Assembly (NCBI GenBank): GCA_022601435.1
Contig: JAJACQ010000020.1
Span: forward strand, 85,535 to 149,534
Reading direction: 5' to 3'
Origin: Chlamydiia bacterium
GTDB lineage: Bacteria; Chlamydiota; Chlamydiia; Chlamydiales; 2-12-FULL-49-11
DNA: 64,000 nt
Each line of letters starts with the position of its first letter. Positions within the stretch are counted from its first letter, which is position 1. The position numbers were made by a program, and so were the translations under genes. The notes below the pieces were generated by a model. It ran no database searches. It saw only the letters and a program-made list of their open reading frames with translations, and had not been told where the DNA came from. Positions 21,731 through 62,424 of the stretch are shown here, in pieces.

Positions 21731-22185
21731 TCGGTTTCCAATGAAAGAATTTCTGAGGTTTTAATAATCTTATATTGTAGTCCATGAAGGTTTTTTACTG
21801 TAAAAATCATTAGGTAACCTCCGGGGAGAGTATCTATATTAGAGATGTCTTTTACTTTTTCTCCATTTGCTAATTTAAATAAAAGACCTTGATTTTGTTT
21901 ACTCTTAAGGGTTGTAAAAGCTTGCTTCCAGTCTTTAGCCATCTCTTTAGGATCGACAATCATGATGTCATTTGATGAAGGCATATTTGGGCTCTTTACT
22001 TGTGCATGATGAGCAGATGCTTGCTGTAGCTCTGTACTCATGAGAGTTTGACCTATCAAAGTATTATCATTTTTTTTAGACGCTTTTGTCTGATGAGGAA
22101 CAACAGGCGACGGCTGCATTTGCACAGAAGAAAGAAGTATGATGATGAGAGGGAGGCTATTTTTTAACAAAGAAGCTAATTCCAT
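21727..22185 (-). CDS. hypothetical exported protein
   Basis: Start set at ATG 22185 (MELASLLKNSLPLIIILLSSVQ, signal-like), preceded by AAGGA. The stop overlaps the lplA start (ATGA at 21727-21730). No family recognised. Confidence 0.45.
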   Translation of the reverse strand: MELASLLKNSLPLIIILLSSVQMQPSPVVPHQTKASKKNDNTLIGQTLMSTELQQASAHHAQVKSPNMPSSNDIMIVDPKEMAKDWKQAFTTLKSKQNQGLLFKLANGEKVKDISNIDTLPGGYLMIFTVKNLHGLQYKIIKTSEILSLETE

Positions 22186-22933
22186 TTGGTGTTTCCTTTG
22201 CACGTTGAAGTGCTTGTTTGGCATCTTTTATCATTAAAGCAATATCGTCATAAACGAAATCTTCTGAAGAGACTATCCCAGCATACGCATTTTTATTTTT
22301 AATTTGAAGGATATCATCTAGTAAAGCGCGTTTATTTTTGATTAAAGAGATAATACAAAAGAGATTTTCACTTACTTCCATTACAAGATCAGAAGGAAAT
22401 AAAGGTTTTTTATCTGTTGAAAGAAGAGCAAGAGCAACATGGCTTTTGTTAATAAAAGCTTTCTTTACTCTACCTATAGCCTCTTGATCTATTACACTTC
22501 GACTATCAATATCAACCTGAGCATCGTCTAATACAGGAATCTTCATTTGTGAGATGATCTCATTAGCTTTTTTACCTGAGGATGTGTCTTTTAGAGTTTG
22601 ATAGATATTTTCATCTGCAAGGGGTAAAGATAAAAAGTTTGAAACGCCATGATGTATGAGCCTTTCTAAATATGATTGGTTTAACTTTCCTGTAATAACT
22701 AAAATAGGGGAGGCTTGAGTATTGGGATGTTTTTTTACCGCATCAACAATATGAAGAGTCTTTTTTTCAGCTTCTGTCTCATCAATAATAATAAATGAAA
22801 ACCTTAAGTGCTCAAGCCTTTCTTTTGCAAAGTTATGACTCGGTAGAAAAATAAGCGAAGAATCCAAAAGCTTCTTCTTCAAAATTAACTCATGGGTTTT
22901 GTTTTCGGTAATAACAAGGATATGATCTTTCAT
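22157..22933 (-). CDS. receiver-like domain protein with degenerate GGDEF-like C-terminal half
   Basis: From Met58 of the ORF-track protein. CheY-like fold markers are ILVITEN, FIIIDE (Asp present) and ILVITG, but the conserved Lys-Pro is SLP. The C-terminus aligns by eye to the distal half of GGDEF domains (HVALALLSTD; DLVMEVSENLFCIIS, with GGDEF replaced by SENLF; YAGIVSS...AKQALQRAKETPNG). The upstream 57 codons lie in a tandem repeat and were removed. Confidence 0.5.
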   Translation of the reverse strand: MKDHILVITENKTHELILKKKLLDSSLIFLPSHNFAKERLEHLRFSFIIIDETEAEKKTLHIVDAVKKHPNTQASPILVITGKLNQSYLERLIHHGVSNFLSLPLADENIYQTLKDTSSGKKANEIISQMKIPVLDDAQVDIDSRSVIDQEAIGRVKKAFINKSHVALALLSTDKKPLFPSDLVMEVSENLFCIISLIKNKRALLDDILQIKNKNAYAGIVSSEDFVYDDIALMIKDAKQALQRAKETPNGISFFVKK

Positions 22934-22940
22934 AGCTCTT

Positions 22941-22969
22941 CTTTTAAACGACTTTTCATTCTCTGTCAA
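22941..22969 (-). promoter_or_regulatory. candidate sigma-70-type promoter of the receiver/GGDEF-like gene
   Basis: On the minus strand: TTGACA (22969-22964), a 17-nt spacer, then TAAAAG (22946-22941). ATG 22933 lies only 7 nt after the -10 box, implying a leaderless or near-leaderless mRNA. The -35 box lies at the proximal edge of the 237-bp repeat array. Confidence 0.3.
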
Positions 22970-23650
22970 GTGGGGCTTTGCCGCACCGCCCACCCGAGGA
23001 ACAAAGTCCCTCTTAACTCCCTTCTTGGATTTTTTTGTGCCTGCACAAAAAATACTAAAATTAGAATTATTCACTTCCATTTTTTTGCAATGCAAAAAAA
23101 TCAAGCATGGGTGTGTTAAGGGCGTAGCCCTTGGCTAGGGTATGGGACAACGTCCCATAGGTCTTGATGAGATTAGACTTATGATTTTTCAGAGCTTTTT
23201 TTTTACCAGTGGGGCTTTGCCTTACGCTCACCCGAGGAACAAAGTCCCTCTTAACTCCCTTCTTTGATTTTTTGTGCTTGGACAAAAAATACTAAAACTA
23301 GAATTATTCCCTTCCGTTCTTTTGCAATGCAAAAAAATCAAGCATGGGTTTGTTAAGGGCGTAGCCCTTGACTAGGGTATGGGGCAACGTCCCATAGGTC
23401 TTGATGAGATTAGACTTATGATTTCTCAGAGCCTTTTTTTTACAAGTGGGGCTTTGCCCTACGCCCACCCGAGGAACAAAGTCCCTCTTAACTCCCTTAT
23501 TTGATTTTTTTGTGCTTGGACAAAAAATACTAAAACTAGAATTATTCACTTCCATTTTTTTGCAATGCAAAAAAATCAAGTATGGGTTTGTTAAGGGCGT
23601 AGCCCTTGACTAGGGTATGGGACAACGTCCCATAGGTCTTAATGAGAATA
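22967..23650. repeat. tandem array, about 2.9 copies of a 237/238-bp multi-hairpin unit (family B)
   Basis: The anchor TGCAATGCAAAAAAATCAAG recurs at 23086, 23323 and 23561. Copies differ only by scattered substitutions and 1-nt indels. Each unit carries a chain of short GC-rich hairpins, mostly with 3-nt loops. Confidence 0.9.
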
Positions 23651-23652
23651 GG

Positions 23653-25468
23653 CTAATAGCCTAAGGTGATCATTAAAATGGAGATGTCAGCAGGAGTAAC
23701 TCCTTCAACACGACTGGCAAGTCCGAGCGTTTCAGGTTTGATCTTTGAAAGGCGTGTAGACGCTTCTTTACGAAGGGTTTTCATGCCTAAGTAATCAAAG
23801 TTTGAGGGAATTTTTAAGGAGTCGAGCTTCTCTAACTTTTCTAAAAGCTTGGACTGTCTTTCAATATATCCTGAATATTTAATTTCTATTTCGATTCGCT
23901 TGGCTATATAGGGATTTATCTGAGGGATAATTGATGGGTAAAGACTTTGTACGTCTTGGAAAGTTATTTCAGGGCGAGCAAGGTAAGTAGAAAGCATCAG
24001 ACTTTTACCATGGATCTCCTTTCGGGTGCTTTTGAGCTTTACTACAATAGATCTGATAATCTCTTGCTCTTGGTTGAATTTTTCGAAACGTTCATCGTCA
24101 ATTAAGCCTAGTAAATGTCCAATAGGAGTTAGACGTGTGTCGGCATTATCATAGCGAAGGTGGAGTCTGTGCTCTGCTCGAGATGTAAACATTCTATAGG
24201 GTTCGGTGAGCTCTTTTGTGATGATGTCCTCTATAAGGACACCTATATATGATGAGCTTCTTGATAGAATGAATGATTCTTTCCCTAAGGCGTTGTGTGC
24301 AGCGTTGATACCTGCAATCAATCCCTGTGCTGCTGCTTCTTCATAGCCTGTTGTTCCATTTATCTGCCCTGCAAAAAAAAGATTCTTAATAAGATGAGTT
24401 TCTAAAGTTGCTTTTAGCTGAAGTGATGTGATGTAATCATATTCAATAGCATAGGCAGGTCTCATGATTTTAGCATTTTCTAGACCTTCAATAGTCTTTA
24501 GCATTGCAACCTGTACATCAAAAGGAAGTGATGTAGATATTCCTGCAGCATAATATTCATGAGTTTTTAAACCTTCTCTTTCTAAAAAGATTTGGTGGCG
24601 AATACGCTCTTTAAATCTTGTGATCTTATCTTCATAAGAGGGACAGTAACGTGGTCCCGCACTGTTAATGTTTCCGCTATACATTGCGGATCTATGTAAA
24701 TGCTCTTCTGCGATCTTTTGAGTTTCAAGGTTTGTGTATGTGATAAAGCAGGGGATTGCAGGAAGCCTTTCATCAGTATCTGAATGAGAAAAACACACAT
24801 CATCCTCTGTTTCTTGAATTTCTAATTTAGAAAAATCAATGGTTTTACCATGAATACGTGGAGGAGTCCCTGTCTTTAATCTTGCTAAGTTAAAGCCTAA
24901 ATCTTTTAATTGATCAGAAATAGGGGATGGGGGATCTCCAATTCTTCCGCCGGGAGATATCTTATCTCCAATATGAATGAGGCCTTTCATAAAAGTTCCA
25001 GCAGAAAGAACCACAGTTTTTGCTCGATAGGAAACGCCTAAAGGGGTGGTTACTCCGCAAACTTTTCCTTCTTCTATGATTAATGAGTTTATTCCGCCTT
25101 GCATTAAAAAAAGGTTTTCTGTGTTTTCTAGAAGATATTTCATCTCATATGAATACATAAATCTATCAGATTGACAGCGTGGAGCCCAGACCGCAGGGCC
25201 TTTTGAGCGATTGAGCATGCGGAAATTTATACCGGTTTTGTCGGCTATTTTTCCCATAACTCCGCCAAGTGCGTCGATTTCACGCACAATTTGACCTTTG
25301 GCAGACCCTCCAATAGAAGGATTGCAGCTCATTTTAGCAATAGTATCTAAATTCATTGTAAGAAGCAGGGTTTTTGCACCAATTTTTGCTGATGCATATG
25401 CAGCTTCACAGCCAGCATGCCCTGCCCCCTATAACGATAACATCAAAGTAATCGGGATAGTCCCACAT
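23653..25468 (-). pseudogene. mnmG: tRNA uridine-5-carboxymethylaminomethyl synthesis enzyme MnmG (GidA), frame broken once near the 5' end
   Basis: The ORF 23653-25356 lacks the N-terminal FAD dinucleotide-binding motif. That motif is encoded upstream from ATG 25468 ([14 protein letters not shown]...) but is out of frame. Removing one G from the GGGGG run (C-run 25425-25429 on +) gives ...[46 protein letters not shown].... The span is 1816 nt, which is 3n+1. May be a sequencing error. Confidence 0.85.
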
Positions 25469-25473
25469 AATAA

Positions 25474-25563
25474 TTATTTATTTTTGTGACGATCTCTTCT
25501 ACTTCTCTTTTTACGCTTGTGCTTATTCATTTTAAGCTTACGCTTTTTCTTCACTGAAGACAT
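25474..25563 (-). CDS. 29-aa highly basic protein, bS22 / AURKAIP1-COX24-like small ribosomal protein candidate
   Basis: Absent from the ORF track because it is under 60 aa. Reads ATG at 25563 to TAA at 25476-25474: MSSVKKKRKLKMNKHKRKKRSRRDRHKNK. AAGG lies 7 nt upstream. The stop is 5 nt before the mnmG ATG. The KKR+K+M.K.KHRK pattern matches my memory of actinobacterial bS22. Confidence 0.55.
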   Translation of the reverse strand: MSSVKKKRKLKMNKHKRKKRSRRDRHKNK

Positions 25564-33891: not shown

Positions 33892-35001
33892 TTAATAGAC
33901 GTCTAGGTGGAAACGCTTTTCCTTCTTGAGAGCCTTTACGGCTAGATGGGCATCCTGGGGCGATAGTTTTTTTTGATCGGCAAAAATGCGCTCTATCGTG
34001 AGCGTGACATCTTTTGCCATCCTCTGGGCATCTCCTGATACGAATATGTGAGCATGCTTGTTCTCTATGAGATCGAAGAGGAACTCTTTTTGATCCCAGA
34101 GACGATCTTGCACATAGACCTTATGAGATGAATCTCTTGAAAATGCTGTGAAGAGCTTAAGATTTCCATGCTGCTCATGCTTTTTTAACTCTTCTTCGAA
34201 ATAAAAATCATACTCTTTATTCCGATCACCTGTAAATAATAGATTATGGCAATGCTTTCTATGCACCCTTTCTTGTATGAACCCTAAAAACGCTGCTATC
34301 CCTGTCCCTGGCCCTATCATTATTATTGGCGTATCATCTTCTGGAGGTTTGAATGATGGATTTGGCTGATGGAAAAGACGTATCGTCTTTTTATTAAGCA
34401 GATGCATAGATGTAAGACTACGATGAGACTTTACTCCTCGCTTATAAGAAAAATCTGCAATAAAAAGCCCAAGGGTGTCATTCATCACACTTTGTGATGA
34501 GGCTACAGAATAAAACCTTGCAAGCATCGGTGATAGAAGATCTACAAGCTCCTGTACGTCTAACTCTTTGCTATAAAATTCTTCTAAAAATTCTACTAAA
34601 TCATGCTTTTCTGTGTATCCTTTCCAATCATCTTCTAATAATTTTTCAAGTCTATCATCCTTTTGGTGGGGGATAAGCGCAGCTGCTATCTTCTTCGTCA
34701 CTCGTGTAAGATTGACATGTTGAAAAAGATATTCTGATAAAGTAATTTCGCTGCCAATTTTCTTCGGAGAAATTCTATGATCTCCAGAAATATCTAATAT
34801 AGAAAGAATCTGAGCTACATCTTTGTCATCATTATCGGGAAGTAAGCCAAAGCTACATCCCACTTCATATTTAATATTTGATCCTTCTAAGGAAAACTCT
34901 GCAAAATGATTTGATTTTGTTGAGCCTTTTTTATTTAGTTGCTTTAGACTTAATATATCTGCCGTAAACGGATTTTTTATTGAATACTTGATCTCATTCA
35001 T
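33892..35001 (-). CDS. CysJ/CPR-like FAD- and NADPH-binding oxidoreductase (no flavodoxin/FMN domain)
   Basis: FNR-superfamily motifs: RFYSVASS (R.YS..S), IIMIGPGTGIAAFLGF, FTAFSRD, IFVSGDAQRMAKDV and a C-terminal ...LDVY. The ATG overlaps the gltX stop (ATGA at 34998-35001). Confidence 0.7.
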   Translation of the reverse strand: MNEIKYSIKNPFTADILSLKQLNKKGSTKSNHFAEFSLEGSNIKYEVGCSFGLLPDNDDKDVAQILSILDISGDHRISPKKIGSEITLSEYLFQHVNLTRVTKKIAAALIPHQKDDRLEKLLEDDWKGYTEKHDLVEFLEEFYSKELDVQELVDLLSPMLARFYSVASSQSVMNDTLGLFIADFSYKRGVKSHRSLTSMHLLNKKTIRLFHQPNPSFKPPEDDTPIIMIGPGTGIAAFLGFIQERVHRKHCHNLLFTGDRNKEYDFYFEEELKKHEQHGNLKLFTAFSRDSSHKVYVQDRLWDQKEFLFDLIENKHAHIFVSGDAQRMAKDVTLTIERIFADQKKLSPQDAHLAVKALKKEKRFHLDVY

Positions 35002-38786: not shown

Positions 38787-39245
38787 ATGGAAAATAGAGA
38801 AGAGATCATGCAGGAGCAAGCAGAAATGGCTCAACCAAGAGTTGTGTCAATTACTGAAGCTGCTAGAATCAACAATGTGACAAGACAAGCGATTTATGTT
38901 GCAATTAAGCAAAAGAAGCTTCGTGCGTCAAAAGATGCGACTAGATGGACAATTGACCTTGCTGATCTAGAAGAGTACAGAAGAAAGAAGTATTCAAGAG
39001 CAAAATCAACATTTGATGGTGAATTAATTTTTGATAACCAGAAAGGTTATTTTTCAGTAAATCAAGTTGCTAAAATGCTTGGTGTGCCACCACAAAAGAT
39101 TTATTACGCAACAAGAATTGGTTTACTAAAAGCAGTTAGAAAAGGTGCTGCTTGGGTGATCCATTCTGATGACGTAAAGGCTTATCAAGAAAATTATTTG
39201 AATAAGAGAACTGTTAATACTGAATCTTCGGATGAAGCAATGTAA
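38787..39245 (+). CDS. euo: Euo-like chlamydial developmental transcriptional repressor (two tandem excisionase-type HTH domains)
   Basis: The internal duplication shows one HTH in each half (ITEAARINNVTRQAIYVAIKQKKL...RWTIDLADLEEY and SVNQVAKMLGVPPQKIYYATRIGLL...GAAWVIHSDDVKAY). Blocks such as FDN.KG.YSVNQVA.MLG.P.QK.YYATR and RKGAAWVI match my memory of Euo. The position next to recJ matches euo in Chlamydia trachomatis. GAGGAGG SD at 38770-38776. Confidence 0.75.
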   Translation: MENREEIMQEQAEMAQPRVVSITEAARINNVTRQAIYVAIKQKKLRASKDATRWTIDLADLEEYRRKKYSRAKSTFDGELIFDNQKGYFSVNQVAKMLGVPPQKIYYATRIGLLKAVRKGAAWVIHSDDVKAYQENYLNKRTVNTESSDEAM

Positions 39246-39325
39246 TTTCTCTTTGGAGATTTTAACATTTAAACAATTTTATAGCAATTCGATAGGGTTA
39301 ACCTATCGAGGCTAGAACCTCTCGC

Positions 39326-61748: not shown

Positions 61749-61910
61749 AAATTCCTAAAAGGCTCTGAGTAAAATCTCATCCAAAATACAGACAAATTTT
61801 GATGCTGTGCAACGAATAATAAAAAGTAAATAATTCTAATATTAAAATTATCGAATTTAATTATGATGTTTTCAGTAGTTACCTTTGCTGAAATCTAGAT
61901 GTTTTTTATT

Positions 61911-61987
61911 TTTTGCGATGCAAAAAATCATATATGGGTTTAGAAAGGGTCTTTGACCCTTCTCAGGGTTTGGGACAGAGTCCCATG
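61911..61987. repeat. solo family B hairpin module, same orientation as the 22967-23650 array
   Basis: TTTTGCG-ATGCAAAA, then TCATATATGGGTTT, then AAGGGTC-TTT-GACCCTT, then TGGGAC-AGA-GTCCCA. Collinear with TTTTGCAATGCAAAAAAATCAAGCATGGGT..AAGGGCGTAGCCCTT..TATGGGACAACGTCCCATA of the array. Confidence 0.8.
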
Positions 61988-61992
61988 AACAG

Positions 61993-62424
61993 TTAGCCTT
62001 CGAGGAAGCTGGAGATTTCTTCTTCTGTGTCGATGACTTCGGTGAGGAAGTGGCGAAGAGTCTTTAAAACGTACTTCGGTGTGTTATAAACACCGCTTGT
62101 TTTATAGACGATCTCAAGTTTAAGATCTTCTTCTTTGATGAGAGCAATCATAACTGTTGTGGAAGGGATGTCATCTATTACATCTGGAACAATCCAAACG
62201 ATGAATTGATTATTAAAGAGAGTTACTTTGCTGTTATTTTCTAAAACATGGAAATAGAATGGGAATTGATCTTGCAATAGTTTCTCTTCATCTTCTGTTT
62301 GATTGAGAAGACCCCAATCCTTAAGCATCTCAAGATCAACATCAATCACACCATCATGAACCCAATATGATGGGTCATCAAGAAATTGGTGAAAATATTC
62401 TTCAAGTTTTTCTGGTTTAATCAT
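61993..62424 (-). CDS. hypothetical small acidic protein
   Basis: 143 aa, rich in Asp/Glu, with no TM segment or signal peptide. No family recognised. Confidence 0.55.
   Translation of the reverse strand: MIKPEKLEEYFHQFLDDPSYWVHDGVIDVDLEMLKDWGLLNQTEDEEKLLQDQFPFYFHVLENNSKVTLFNNQFIVWIVPDVIDDIPSTTVMIALIKEEDLKLEIVYKTSGVYNTPKYVLKTLRHFLTEVIDTEEEISSFLEG

Follow-up and report, generated by a model that had tools for sequence, protein, structure and literature searches.

In the genome of a Chlamydiia bacterium (GenBank assembly GCA_022601435.1, contig JAJACQ010000020.1), the gene mnmG (23653-25356, minus strand, confirmed by Pfam) is separated from the next gene, here called X (22157-22933, minus strand, 258 aa), by a spacer filled with a tandem array of GC-rich hairpins. 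This locus raises the question of what is repeated there and how the array arose. All coordinates refer to the window, that is, the whole stretch of 64,000 nucleotides analyzed (contig positions 85,535 to 149,534, forward strand); handles such as L001 denote loci on other contigs. We conclude, with a probability that we put at about 0.62, that the array is a cluster belonging to a dispersed family of palindromic repeats that resemble repetitive extragenic palindromic (REP) sequences and bacterial interspersed mosaic elements (BIMEs), and that one dimer of this family was triplicated by segmental duplication. An earlier note on this DNA had considered a REP/BIME-like element amplified in tandem. 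This proposal holds in kind, as shown by the dispersed copies, the inverted dimers and their location at gene 3' ends, and fails with respect to the repeated unit and the promoter.

The array has the extent claimed for it, about 2.9 copies of 237/238 bp, as confirmed by Tandem Repeats Finder and by a search for repeat spacings. Furthermore, its 20-nt anchor TGCAATGCAAAAAAATCAAG recurs exactly at 23086, 23323 and 23561, with a chance expectation of 0.

22967-23651, strand not applicable: tandem array; Tandem Repeats Finder period 237, 2.9 copies, 93% matches, score 1207; copy spacings 237 and 238.

The three units are 93.5-94.4% identical in pairwise comparison. The identical 2.9-copy array is found in a second, independently assembled metagenome scaffold from this organism (L001; 99.991% identity across 21.4 kb), and hence the array is no assembly artefact. 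The window has a GC content of 34.8%, and perfect GC-rich hairpins with short loops are indeed rare in it and grouped at few intergenic sites. The hairpins originally listed for the array are present, yet three of them need small corrections. AAGGGC-GTA-GCCCTT occurs three times, and TATGGGAC-AAC-GTCCCATA twice plus once in a version with a G.T pair. The hairpin GAGGAAC-AAA-GTCCCTC has an A.C mismatch on the plus strand and is closed by G.U on the minus strand only, TTGTGC-CT-GCACAA is perfect in unit 1 only, and for TTTTGCA-A-TGCAAAA a stem of 9 bp closed by a 3-nt loop is the more realistic description. A scan of 22800-23800 for terminator-like structures flagged a single candidate, the small hairpin already described over the mnmG stop codon.

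23649-23663, minus strand: small hairpin TAGGCT-ATT-AGCCTA, spanning the mnmG stop and trailed by a weak T-rich stretch (terminator-like scan).

The 237-bp unit, which had been taken for the element, is not the elementary repeat. It is an inverted, head-to-head dimer of a three-hairpin element of about 87 nt plus flanking DNA, and it is the whole intergenic segment that was amplified. The element consists, in order, of an AT-rich hairpin (hp0, T6-7 G..C A6-7), the single-stranded linker TCAnnnnnGGGTTT, a GC-rich hairpin (hp1), the bases nGGGGT and a second GC-rich hairpin (hp2), and therewith has a polarity; hp1 and hp2 are palindromes of 15-22 nt. Each unit contains one L copy (forward on the minus strand, GGGAGT subtype) and one R copy (forward on the plus strand), whose hp0 ends lie 27 nt apart. 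Both halves of every unit fit one covariance model, R1, which was built from 20 copies and applied with E < 1e-5 as the threshold for counting a copy; R copies score 74-84 bits and L copies 60-67 bits. The array thus reads L1 R1 L2 R2 L3 R3, an alternating layout of two subtypes.

22921-23179, minus strand: unit 1 (gene-X side, 259 nt), with the pair L1+R1 and the live promoter, ribosome-binding site and start codon of X (unit alignment).
22967-23055, minus strand: element L1 (GGGAGT subtype), covariance model R1, 63.1 bits, E 4e-11.
23078-23161, plus strand: element R1, covariance model R1, 80.1 bits.
23180-23416, minus strand: unit 2 (237 nt), with the pair L2+R2 and a dead X start region (CTG for ATG, 20 nt of promoter spacer gone).
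23206-23292, minus strand: element L2, covariance model R1, 59.7 bits.
23315-23398, plus strand: element R2, covariance model R1, 74.1 bits.
23417-23654, minus strand: unit 3 (mnmG side, 238 nt), with the pair L3+R3 and a dead X start region; it starts at the mnmG stop codon.
23443-23530, minus strand: element L3, covariance model R1, 67.2 bits.
23553-23636, plus strand: element R3, covariance model R1, 84.4 bits; its hp2 end is 16 nt from the mnmG stop codon.

The element is not confined to the array. As the earlier note had suggested looking for, related copies were found both elsewhere in the window and in other genomes. With the speed filters of the covariance search switched off, the window holds exactly 9 copies at 4 loci, namely the six of the array and the three solo elements listed here, and no further copy lies within 10 kb beyond either side of the window.

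33781-33866, plus strand: site A, solo element, model R1, 74.5 bits; its hp2 end is 25 nt from the stop of a cysJ-like gene (33892-35001, minus strand).
61906-61989, plus strand: site B, solo element, model R1, 76.3 bits; its hp2 end is 3 nt from the stop of the open reading frame (ORF) 61993-62424 (minus strand).
25653-25739, minus strand: site C, diverged solo element, model R1, 40.9 bits, E 2e-6; between dnaB and a tiny Lys/Arg-rich ORF.

A scan of one genome per species, covering 185,579 species, with the pattern TTTTTTG-N4-10-CAAAAAA-N0-1-TCA-N5-GGGT yielded 38 loci. Eleven of these (15 matches on ten contigs) come from a single metagenome-assembled genome (MAG), 'bacterium isolate O_S4.2_bin.6', and all of them continue into both GC hairpins; 26 others show no hairpins after the match and look like chance. 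In the DNA examined, model R1 finds 32 copies, of which 9 lie in the window, 1 in L002 and 22 in O_S4.2_bin.6 (11 loci), and the family is therewith dispersed over at least three genomes; two decayed copies are found in L055. Two pattern scans of metagenome contigs of the Joint Genome Institute (JGI) gave 0 and then 8 loci, all of them chance according to the covariance model, and the JGI contig L002 was likewise not recovered by them, so that this collection evidently does not include the contigs in question. Short-read contigs break within the element at both ends of L012, at the end of L056 (77 nt after mnmG) and at the start of L060 (inside site B), which is the typical behavior of a multi-copy repeat in assemblies.

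The family has no match in the catalogues searched. Two units gave no blastn match to PLSDB plasmids or INPHARED phages; in Rfam, the only match of the whole window at the gathering threshold is a tRNA at 27268-27356, and the best match of 22800-23800 at E <= 10 is a miRNA model with E = 0.08, far short of threshold. Neither blastn nor Rfam thus revealed a sequence similarity to the palindromic repeats of other obligate intracellular bacteria. A full-text literature search for REP, REP-associated tyrosine transposases (RAYTs), REPINs (paired REPs forming a hairpin), miniature inverted-repeat transposable elements (MITEs) or palindromic repeats in chlamydiae found nothing relevant, in agreement with the first impression that this is not a described chlamydial element.

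Three forms of the element can be distinguished. Besides solo copies, there are head-to-head pairs, which keep both hp0 (array, L022, L036 and L041), and symmetric pairs of 146-160 bp, in which one hp0 is common to both partners (L019 1859-2018, L027 88-235, L036 2945-3093 and L043 1371-1516). GGG(T) precedes hp1 in 28 of the 32 copies and hp2 in 30 of them. The A6-TC...GGG linker is invariant and, like the T6 and A6 tracts, is kept as sequence and not through structure alone.

Several irregular structures were observed beside the elements. The 480-bp convergent gap that holds site A also contains, at 33447-33675, a hairpin GCGGGGC...GCCCCGC followed by an 86-bp tandem repeat (2.2 copies, 81% matches) with nested palindromes, which the element model does not recognize. 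In two copies of O_S4.2_bin.6 (L009 449-500, minus strand, which adjoins an apparent tRNA gene, and L043 1480-1529, plus strand), hp2 is replaced by a common sequence of about 45 nt, TTAGGTTnnAnnTTCnATTAAATATC...CGTAAAAG, possibly another repeat or a promoter region that is conserved. In the same MAG, an extra third GC hairpin, GTGTGGGGTGGAACCCCACATA, lies between hp2 and the stop codon at L027 236-260, and at L036 4018-4031 the 3' arm of hp2 is partly re-duplicated before the stop codon (CAAAGCCCCAC twice); both cases suggest local slippage at hp2.

The hairpins are conserved as structures. RNAalifold recovers all three from the aligned copies, and the covariation that the earlier note had proposed to seek is present in the stems. 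In the alignment of 32 copies, 95.9% of the pair cells pair, compared with 35-63% after a shift of the 3' partners by 1-3 columns. Compensatory changes on both sides are seen in 19 of 23 pairs, and 0 of 500 shuffles reach these values; this alignment was fitted to the covariance model, which bears on its pairing statistics, and an alignment made with MAFFT only already shows compensatory changes in 10 of 22 pairs. The copies comprise 15 different sequences of hp1 and 26 of hp2, and independent copies in the window are only 44-65% identical, with the stems kept in each. The R subtype of the array shares about 80% identity with one copy of O_S4.2_bin.6 (L022 393-477), which indicates that the subtypes predate the split of these genomes. 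Counted per distinct variant, G.U exceeds A.C by 11:1 in hp1 and is balanced at 4:4 in hp2, which hints at a functional strand for hp1 at most; the raw count of 51:8 is inflated by a register problem in hp0.

All copies are intergenic or overlap the ends of ORFs, and they favor gene 3' ends in a defined orientation. For 19 of the 32 copies, a converging ORF has its stop codon between -21 and +26 nt from the hp2 end, mostly between -6 and +4; in several copies this codon is located within the hp2 stem, and the enolase ORF in L030 runs through hp2. In L019, L023, L036 and L041, a symmetric pair fills the entire gap between convergent genes. The abutting genes are housekeeping genes, encoding SctV, RNase R, AsnRS, enolase, HemW, dCTP deaminase and a P-type ATPase. 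No stop codon is abutted by the array-internal copies, by site C and by L030:7012. For L014:426, the L022 pair, L027:88 and L036:3006, no converging stop was detected within the scan range, and L009 and L043:1434 lack hp2. Canonical terminators are absent from the element-bearing gene ends, except for the weak hairpin over the mnmG stop.

Occupancy of the site downstream of mnmG differs among relatives, as follows.

Window, mnmG 3' end: three dimers.
L002, MnmG 86% identical to that of the window (C-terminal fragment): one intact solo element in the same orientation.
L055/L056, MnmG 85%: one decayed inverted dimer, the distal half of which is of the L (GGGAGT) subtype.
L057, MnmG 81%: no element, mnmG-X spacer of 40 bp.
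L004, MnmG 82%: no element, mnmG-X spacer of 40 bp.
L003, L005, L006: no element after mnmG, 40-bp spacer.
L053, MnmG 74%: no element; mnmG is followed after 3 nt by a converging ORF in place of X.

Likewise, the element of site C is absent from L003, L006 and L055, and the 480-bp gap holding site A is wholly absent in L055/L056, the two convergent genes there having a 4-nt overlap. These differences in occupancy indicate gain or loss on a short evolutionary scale, and elements can also decay in place. None of the O_S4.2_bin.6 loci examined overlaps genes of the window, precluding a comparison by synteny. Just past the mnmG-side element, on the opposite strand, L002 (1027-2431) and L055 (11675-12776) carry homologous small membrane-protein ORFs (31-36% identical, no Pfam match), which the window lacks; in L002 they lie between the element and X, while the L055 contig ends before any X homologue. 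The junction beside the element is thus a point of rearrangement.

How did three dimers come to stand where these relatives have one element or none? Aligning the units with their flanks shows that the repeated unit starts at the mnmG stop codon, where ..TAG|CCTATTCTCATTAAGACC corresponds to ..AAG|TCTAATCTCATCAAGACC, and ends at nucleotide 13 of gene X (codon 5), where TAAAAGAAGAGCTATGAAAGATCATA corresponds to TAAAAAAAAGGCTCTGAGAAATCATA. Each upstream unit therefore contains a dead copy of the -10 box, the ribosome-binding site and the first four codons of X, with CTG in place of ATG. The two upstream units lack the 20 nt ACAGAGAATGAAAAGTCGTT, which supply the X promoter with its spacer and the 3' half of its -35 box; these 20 nt and the ATG are kept in the proximal unit 1 only.

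TTGACA at 22969-22964, 17-nt spacer, TAAAAG at 22946-22941, minus strand: predicted sigma-70-type promoter of X.

According to the earlier note, the array supplies the TTGACA box of this promoter. Only the TTG of the box falls inside the repeat, however, and the same promoter layout is found in L006 (40-bp spacer) and in L002, both of which lack the array. The X promoter is thus ancestral and not donated by the repeat. We hypothesize that a single inverted dimer was duplicated twice in tandem together with the full spacer, from the mnmG stop to nucleotide 13 of X, probably by unequal recombination or slippage. The promoter deletion would have occurred in the first duplicate, before the second round, and the two upstream copies of the X start region would then have become inert. 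A single dimer of the ancestral type is still visible, although decayed, in L055. The mnmG-X junction has in this way grown from 40 bp in relatives to 720 bp, leaving the ancestral X promoter undisturbed.

For the REP/BIME-like family, we propose that it is spread, maintained or homogenized by an enzyme recognizing folded single strands, as a RAYT-type enzyme does for REPs, with the GGGT-type motif at the foot of the GC hairpins playing the role that GTAG has for RAYTs. Once transcribed with the abutting genes, the hairpins may act as 3' barriers that protect from exonucleases or attenuate read-through; at the present locus, such a barrier would insulate mnmG from X, which has its own ancestral promoter. 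Several observations weigh against this interpretation. No transposase family of Pfam, be it Y1/RAYT or other, was found in about 45 ORFs of the window and the ORFs adjacent to elements, and tblastn with queries for IS200 TnpA and E. coli RAYT, used as a lead only, gave no match in all DNA examined. For the genomes concerned, the DNA searched amounted to less than about 170 kb (source genome ~84 kb, O_S4.2_bin.6 ~80 kb). GTAG occurs in 5 of the 32 copies and CGTC in 6, several times in hairpin loops and not at the hairpin foot. The family would accordingly be one that works like REP/BIME, rather than a demonstrated member of the two large REP superfamilies tagged with GTAG or CGTC (Di Nocera 2013), whose tag is an unpaired tetranucleotide at one foot of the stem-loop. 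The identity of 44-65% among window copies is unlike that of a recently active copy-and-paste family, and near-perfect stems at such divergence could reflect host-level selection on structure. In addition, filled and empty sites are too diverged in their alignments to define a target-site duplication, the family is seen in three or four genomes only, and no T run follows any element hairpin on either strand (scan of 22800-23800), leaving a role as classical terminator unsupported.

These points leave some room for a family that is no REP analogue at all, which we regard as rather unlikely. It would be a structure-selected module of three hairpins at stop codons with a recognition system of its own: either a 3'-end or insulator element dependent on a lineage-specific factor, which would read the GGGTTT and GGGGT linkers, or a new kind of mobile element aimed at stop codons that manages without an HUH/Y1 enzyme. 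At least two chlamydial genomes would then have preserved its subtypes over long periods. An origin as a palindrome-associated transposable element (PATE) or through IS200/IS605, which had also been raised, finds no support, given that no ORF resembling TnpA or TnpB is present in the window or the loci and that the halves are inverted instead of being ends on the same strand. CRISPR was rejected for its lack of unique spacers, and integron attC sites were rejected as well, there being no cassette arrays, no integrase and no conserved R'/R'' cores.

A host-selected, cis-acting RNA module, i.e., a 3' untranslated region or terminator/insulator perhaps bound by a lineage-specific factor via the GGGTTT and GGGGT linkers, is conceivable although on the unlikely side, and the same holds for the corollary that the array provides extra-strong insulation between mnmG and X. 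Such a module would account for stems that stay near-perfect despite the low identity of window copies, for the tight and orientation-dependent setting of hp2 at stop codons, and for symmetric pairs placed exactly between convergent genes; it also agrees with a genomic region in which canonical hairpin plus T-run terminators are barely enriched (20 versus 13.2 +/- 3.8 in shuffles) and with the one-sided G.U excess of hp1. Yet of about 70 gene ends in 84 kb only some 4 have the element, which cannot therefore be the general terminator; close relatives lack it at the orthologous gene ends, and the orthologous dimer of L055 is decaying. Its hairpins lack a T tail, the G.U bias favors the strand antisense to the abutting gene while hp2 is unbiased, and half of the array copies face away from any gene end. 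That the elements serve at the DNA level as protein-binding sites, where hairpins or cruciforms and A/T tracts would order supercoiling or the nucleoid at gene ends, seems doubtful as a full explanation, although it can coexist with the REP/BIME-like interpretation. E. coli BIMEs bind gyrase (BIME-2), IHF (integration host factor; BIME-1/RIP) and Pol I, and the sequence conservation of the A6-TC...GGG linker and the T6/A6 tracts, as well as the alternating two-subtype layout reminiscent of BIME-2, point in this direction, whereas the compensatory stem changes point to single-strand folding and not to duplex recognition. An IHF site in the linker was rejected: in a comparison by eye with the consensus, the linker does not fit the IHF core WATCAANNNNTTR, and the spacing is off.

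Could each unit instead encode one or two independently transcribed small RNAs? The structure is conserved with covariation, and the 722-nt mnmG-X spacer folds far better than shuffles on either strand (z ~ -7.7 and -8.0). However, any palindromic DNA folds equally on both strands, so that this signal does not discriminate a strand. Rfam holds no family at threshold for it, promoter-like sites in the array do not exceed shuffles (2 versus 1.4 expected, including TGGACA-N17-AATTAT in the head-to-head spacer), the units end without a T-tailed terminator, and the solo copies are wedged at stop codons with no room for a promoter; an array of small RNA genes is, in our judgement, very improbable. 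Almost no credence is left for a remnant of a repeated coding sequence or pseudogene, or for an assembly artefact. It is true that 237 equals 79 x 3 and that ORFs of 55-91 aa run through the units, but the second spacing of 238 breaks the frame, these ORFs have no Pfam match even at E = 1, and conservation tracks the hairpins and not the frame. With regard to an artefact, the array is the same in every base in two independent assemblies.

Repeats of this small palindromic kind influence where transcripts end, how genomes rearrange and how well they assemble. The present family, whose orientation to stop codons is unusually clear, can be searched for with model R1 or the pattern T6G-N4-10-CA6-TCA-N5-GGGT; it accounts for contig breaks and fragments the short-read MAG assemblies of this clade. 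As its occupancy changes among relatives whose MnmG proteins are 81-86% identical, it could mark recent genome dynamics in an uncultured chlamydial clade. It also offers a test case for the question whether REP-like systems exist without GTAG/CGTC tags or a RAYT.

Regarding the flanking genes, the nearest named relatives of MnmG, about 60% identical, come from MAGs assigned to Chlamydiae, Chlamydiota and Simkaniaceae. The description of X as response-regulator-like is weakly supported by NCBIfam matches to PleD/BarA (E ~1e-4) and by one homologue named 'PleD family response regulator' by JGI. Compared with L001, which is otherwise identical over 21.4 kb, the window has single-base homopolymer insertions at 25425 and 19497. 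The former splits mnmG, the N-terminus of which lies upstream at ~25467, and the latter splits sdhA into 377 + 265 aa, versus 636 aa in L001; both splits are probably consensus errors of the window assembly rather than pseudogenes. Between dnaB and mnmG, a Lys/Arg-rich ORF of 29 aa (25474-25562, minus strand, MSSVKKKRKLKMNKHKRKKRSRRDRHKNK) has its own promoter-like site, TTTACA-N17-TATGCT, and is near-identical in L003, L006 and L055; it may be a tiny ribosomal protein of the bS22 type. A long protein fusing SecD and SecF is encoded elsewhere in the window; among NCBIfam models it matches the bifunctional SecD/SecF one best, although below the curated cut-off. Together with the relatives of MnmG, this upholds the assignment of the DNA to chlamydiae. 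Four consecutive ORFs of 249-278 aa without Pfam match occupy 27414-30608 (minus strand), where the syntenic block of L055 has three. At 38787-39309, an ORF with matches to HTH_17 (excisionase-type) and AbiEi_4 is followed by a perfect 8-bp palindrome, TCGATAGG-GTTAA-CCTATCGA (39289-39309); together they may be the remnant of an integrated element.

How does the family compare with known systems? Like REP, BIME and REPIN sequences, its members are short, GC-rich, imperfect palindromes in the extragenic DNA of an AT-richer genome, with an unpaired conserved tag at the foot of each hairpin. They share with them the occurrence as singletons, inverted dimers and tandem clusters of a dimer plus flanking DNA, the alternation of two subtypes in orientation, the position at gene 3' ends, where they sometimes supply the stop codon, and the presence of several old subtypes per genome. 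REPs are defined as imperfect palindromes of 20-40 bp repeated many times in extragenic DNA, and the present family agrees with this through its GC-rich palindromes hp1 and hp2, the element having 9 copies at 4 loci in 64 kb and about 22 copies at 11 loci of O_S4.2_bin.6; the inverted dimers and tandem clusters of alternating subtypes with flank that define REPINs and BIMEs are found as well. REPs and REPINs are typically tied to a single-copy RAYT, a Y1/HUH transposase flanked by inverted REPs. Unlike in REPs, the monomer spans about 87 nt and combines three hairpins, one of them long and AT-rich, GGGT(TT) takes the place of GTAG/CGTC as the tag, no RAYT was found in the DNA examined, and the host phylum is Chlamydiota. 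The behaviors seen here are described in a survey of REPs that covers members of the Planctomycetes-Verrucomicrobia-Chlamydiae group other than chlamydiae (PMC3733652).

Intrinsic and bidirectional terminators likewise place GC-rich hairpins just past stop codons and symmetric structures between convergent genes. In contrast to them, neither hp1 nor hp2 leads into a T/U run on any strand, T6 and A6 pair with each other within hp0, and the linker sequence is conserved between copies. Correia elements of Neisseria are MITEs with long terminal inverted repeats. The symmetric form of our element is similar to them in being one long imperfect palindrome, which as RNA can form a long hairpin, in being intergenic and in possibly affecting transcript ends; it differs in that solo half-elements are commoner, each arm is made of autonomous hairpins, and neither a target-site duplication, given the diverged site alignments, nor a parent insertion sequence with matching ends was found in the DNA examined. 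Among obligate intracellular bacteria, Coxiella and Wolbachia harbor MITE-like palindromic elements, and those of Rickettsia are typically inserted in frame inside genes, unlike the extragenic, stop-codon-abutting elements described here. Rickettsia palindromic elements are CGTC-tagged (PMC3733652). As in these bacteria, the repeats of the present family are non-coding, reside in a small AT-rich genome and can enter the ends of ORFs. Altogether, the family is apparently undescribed in Chlamydiota, while its behavior is that already known for REP-type elements.

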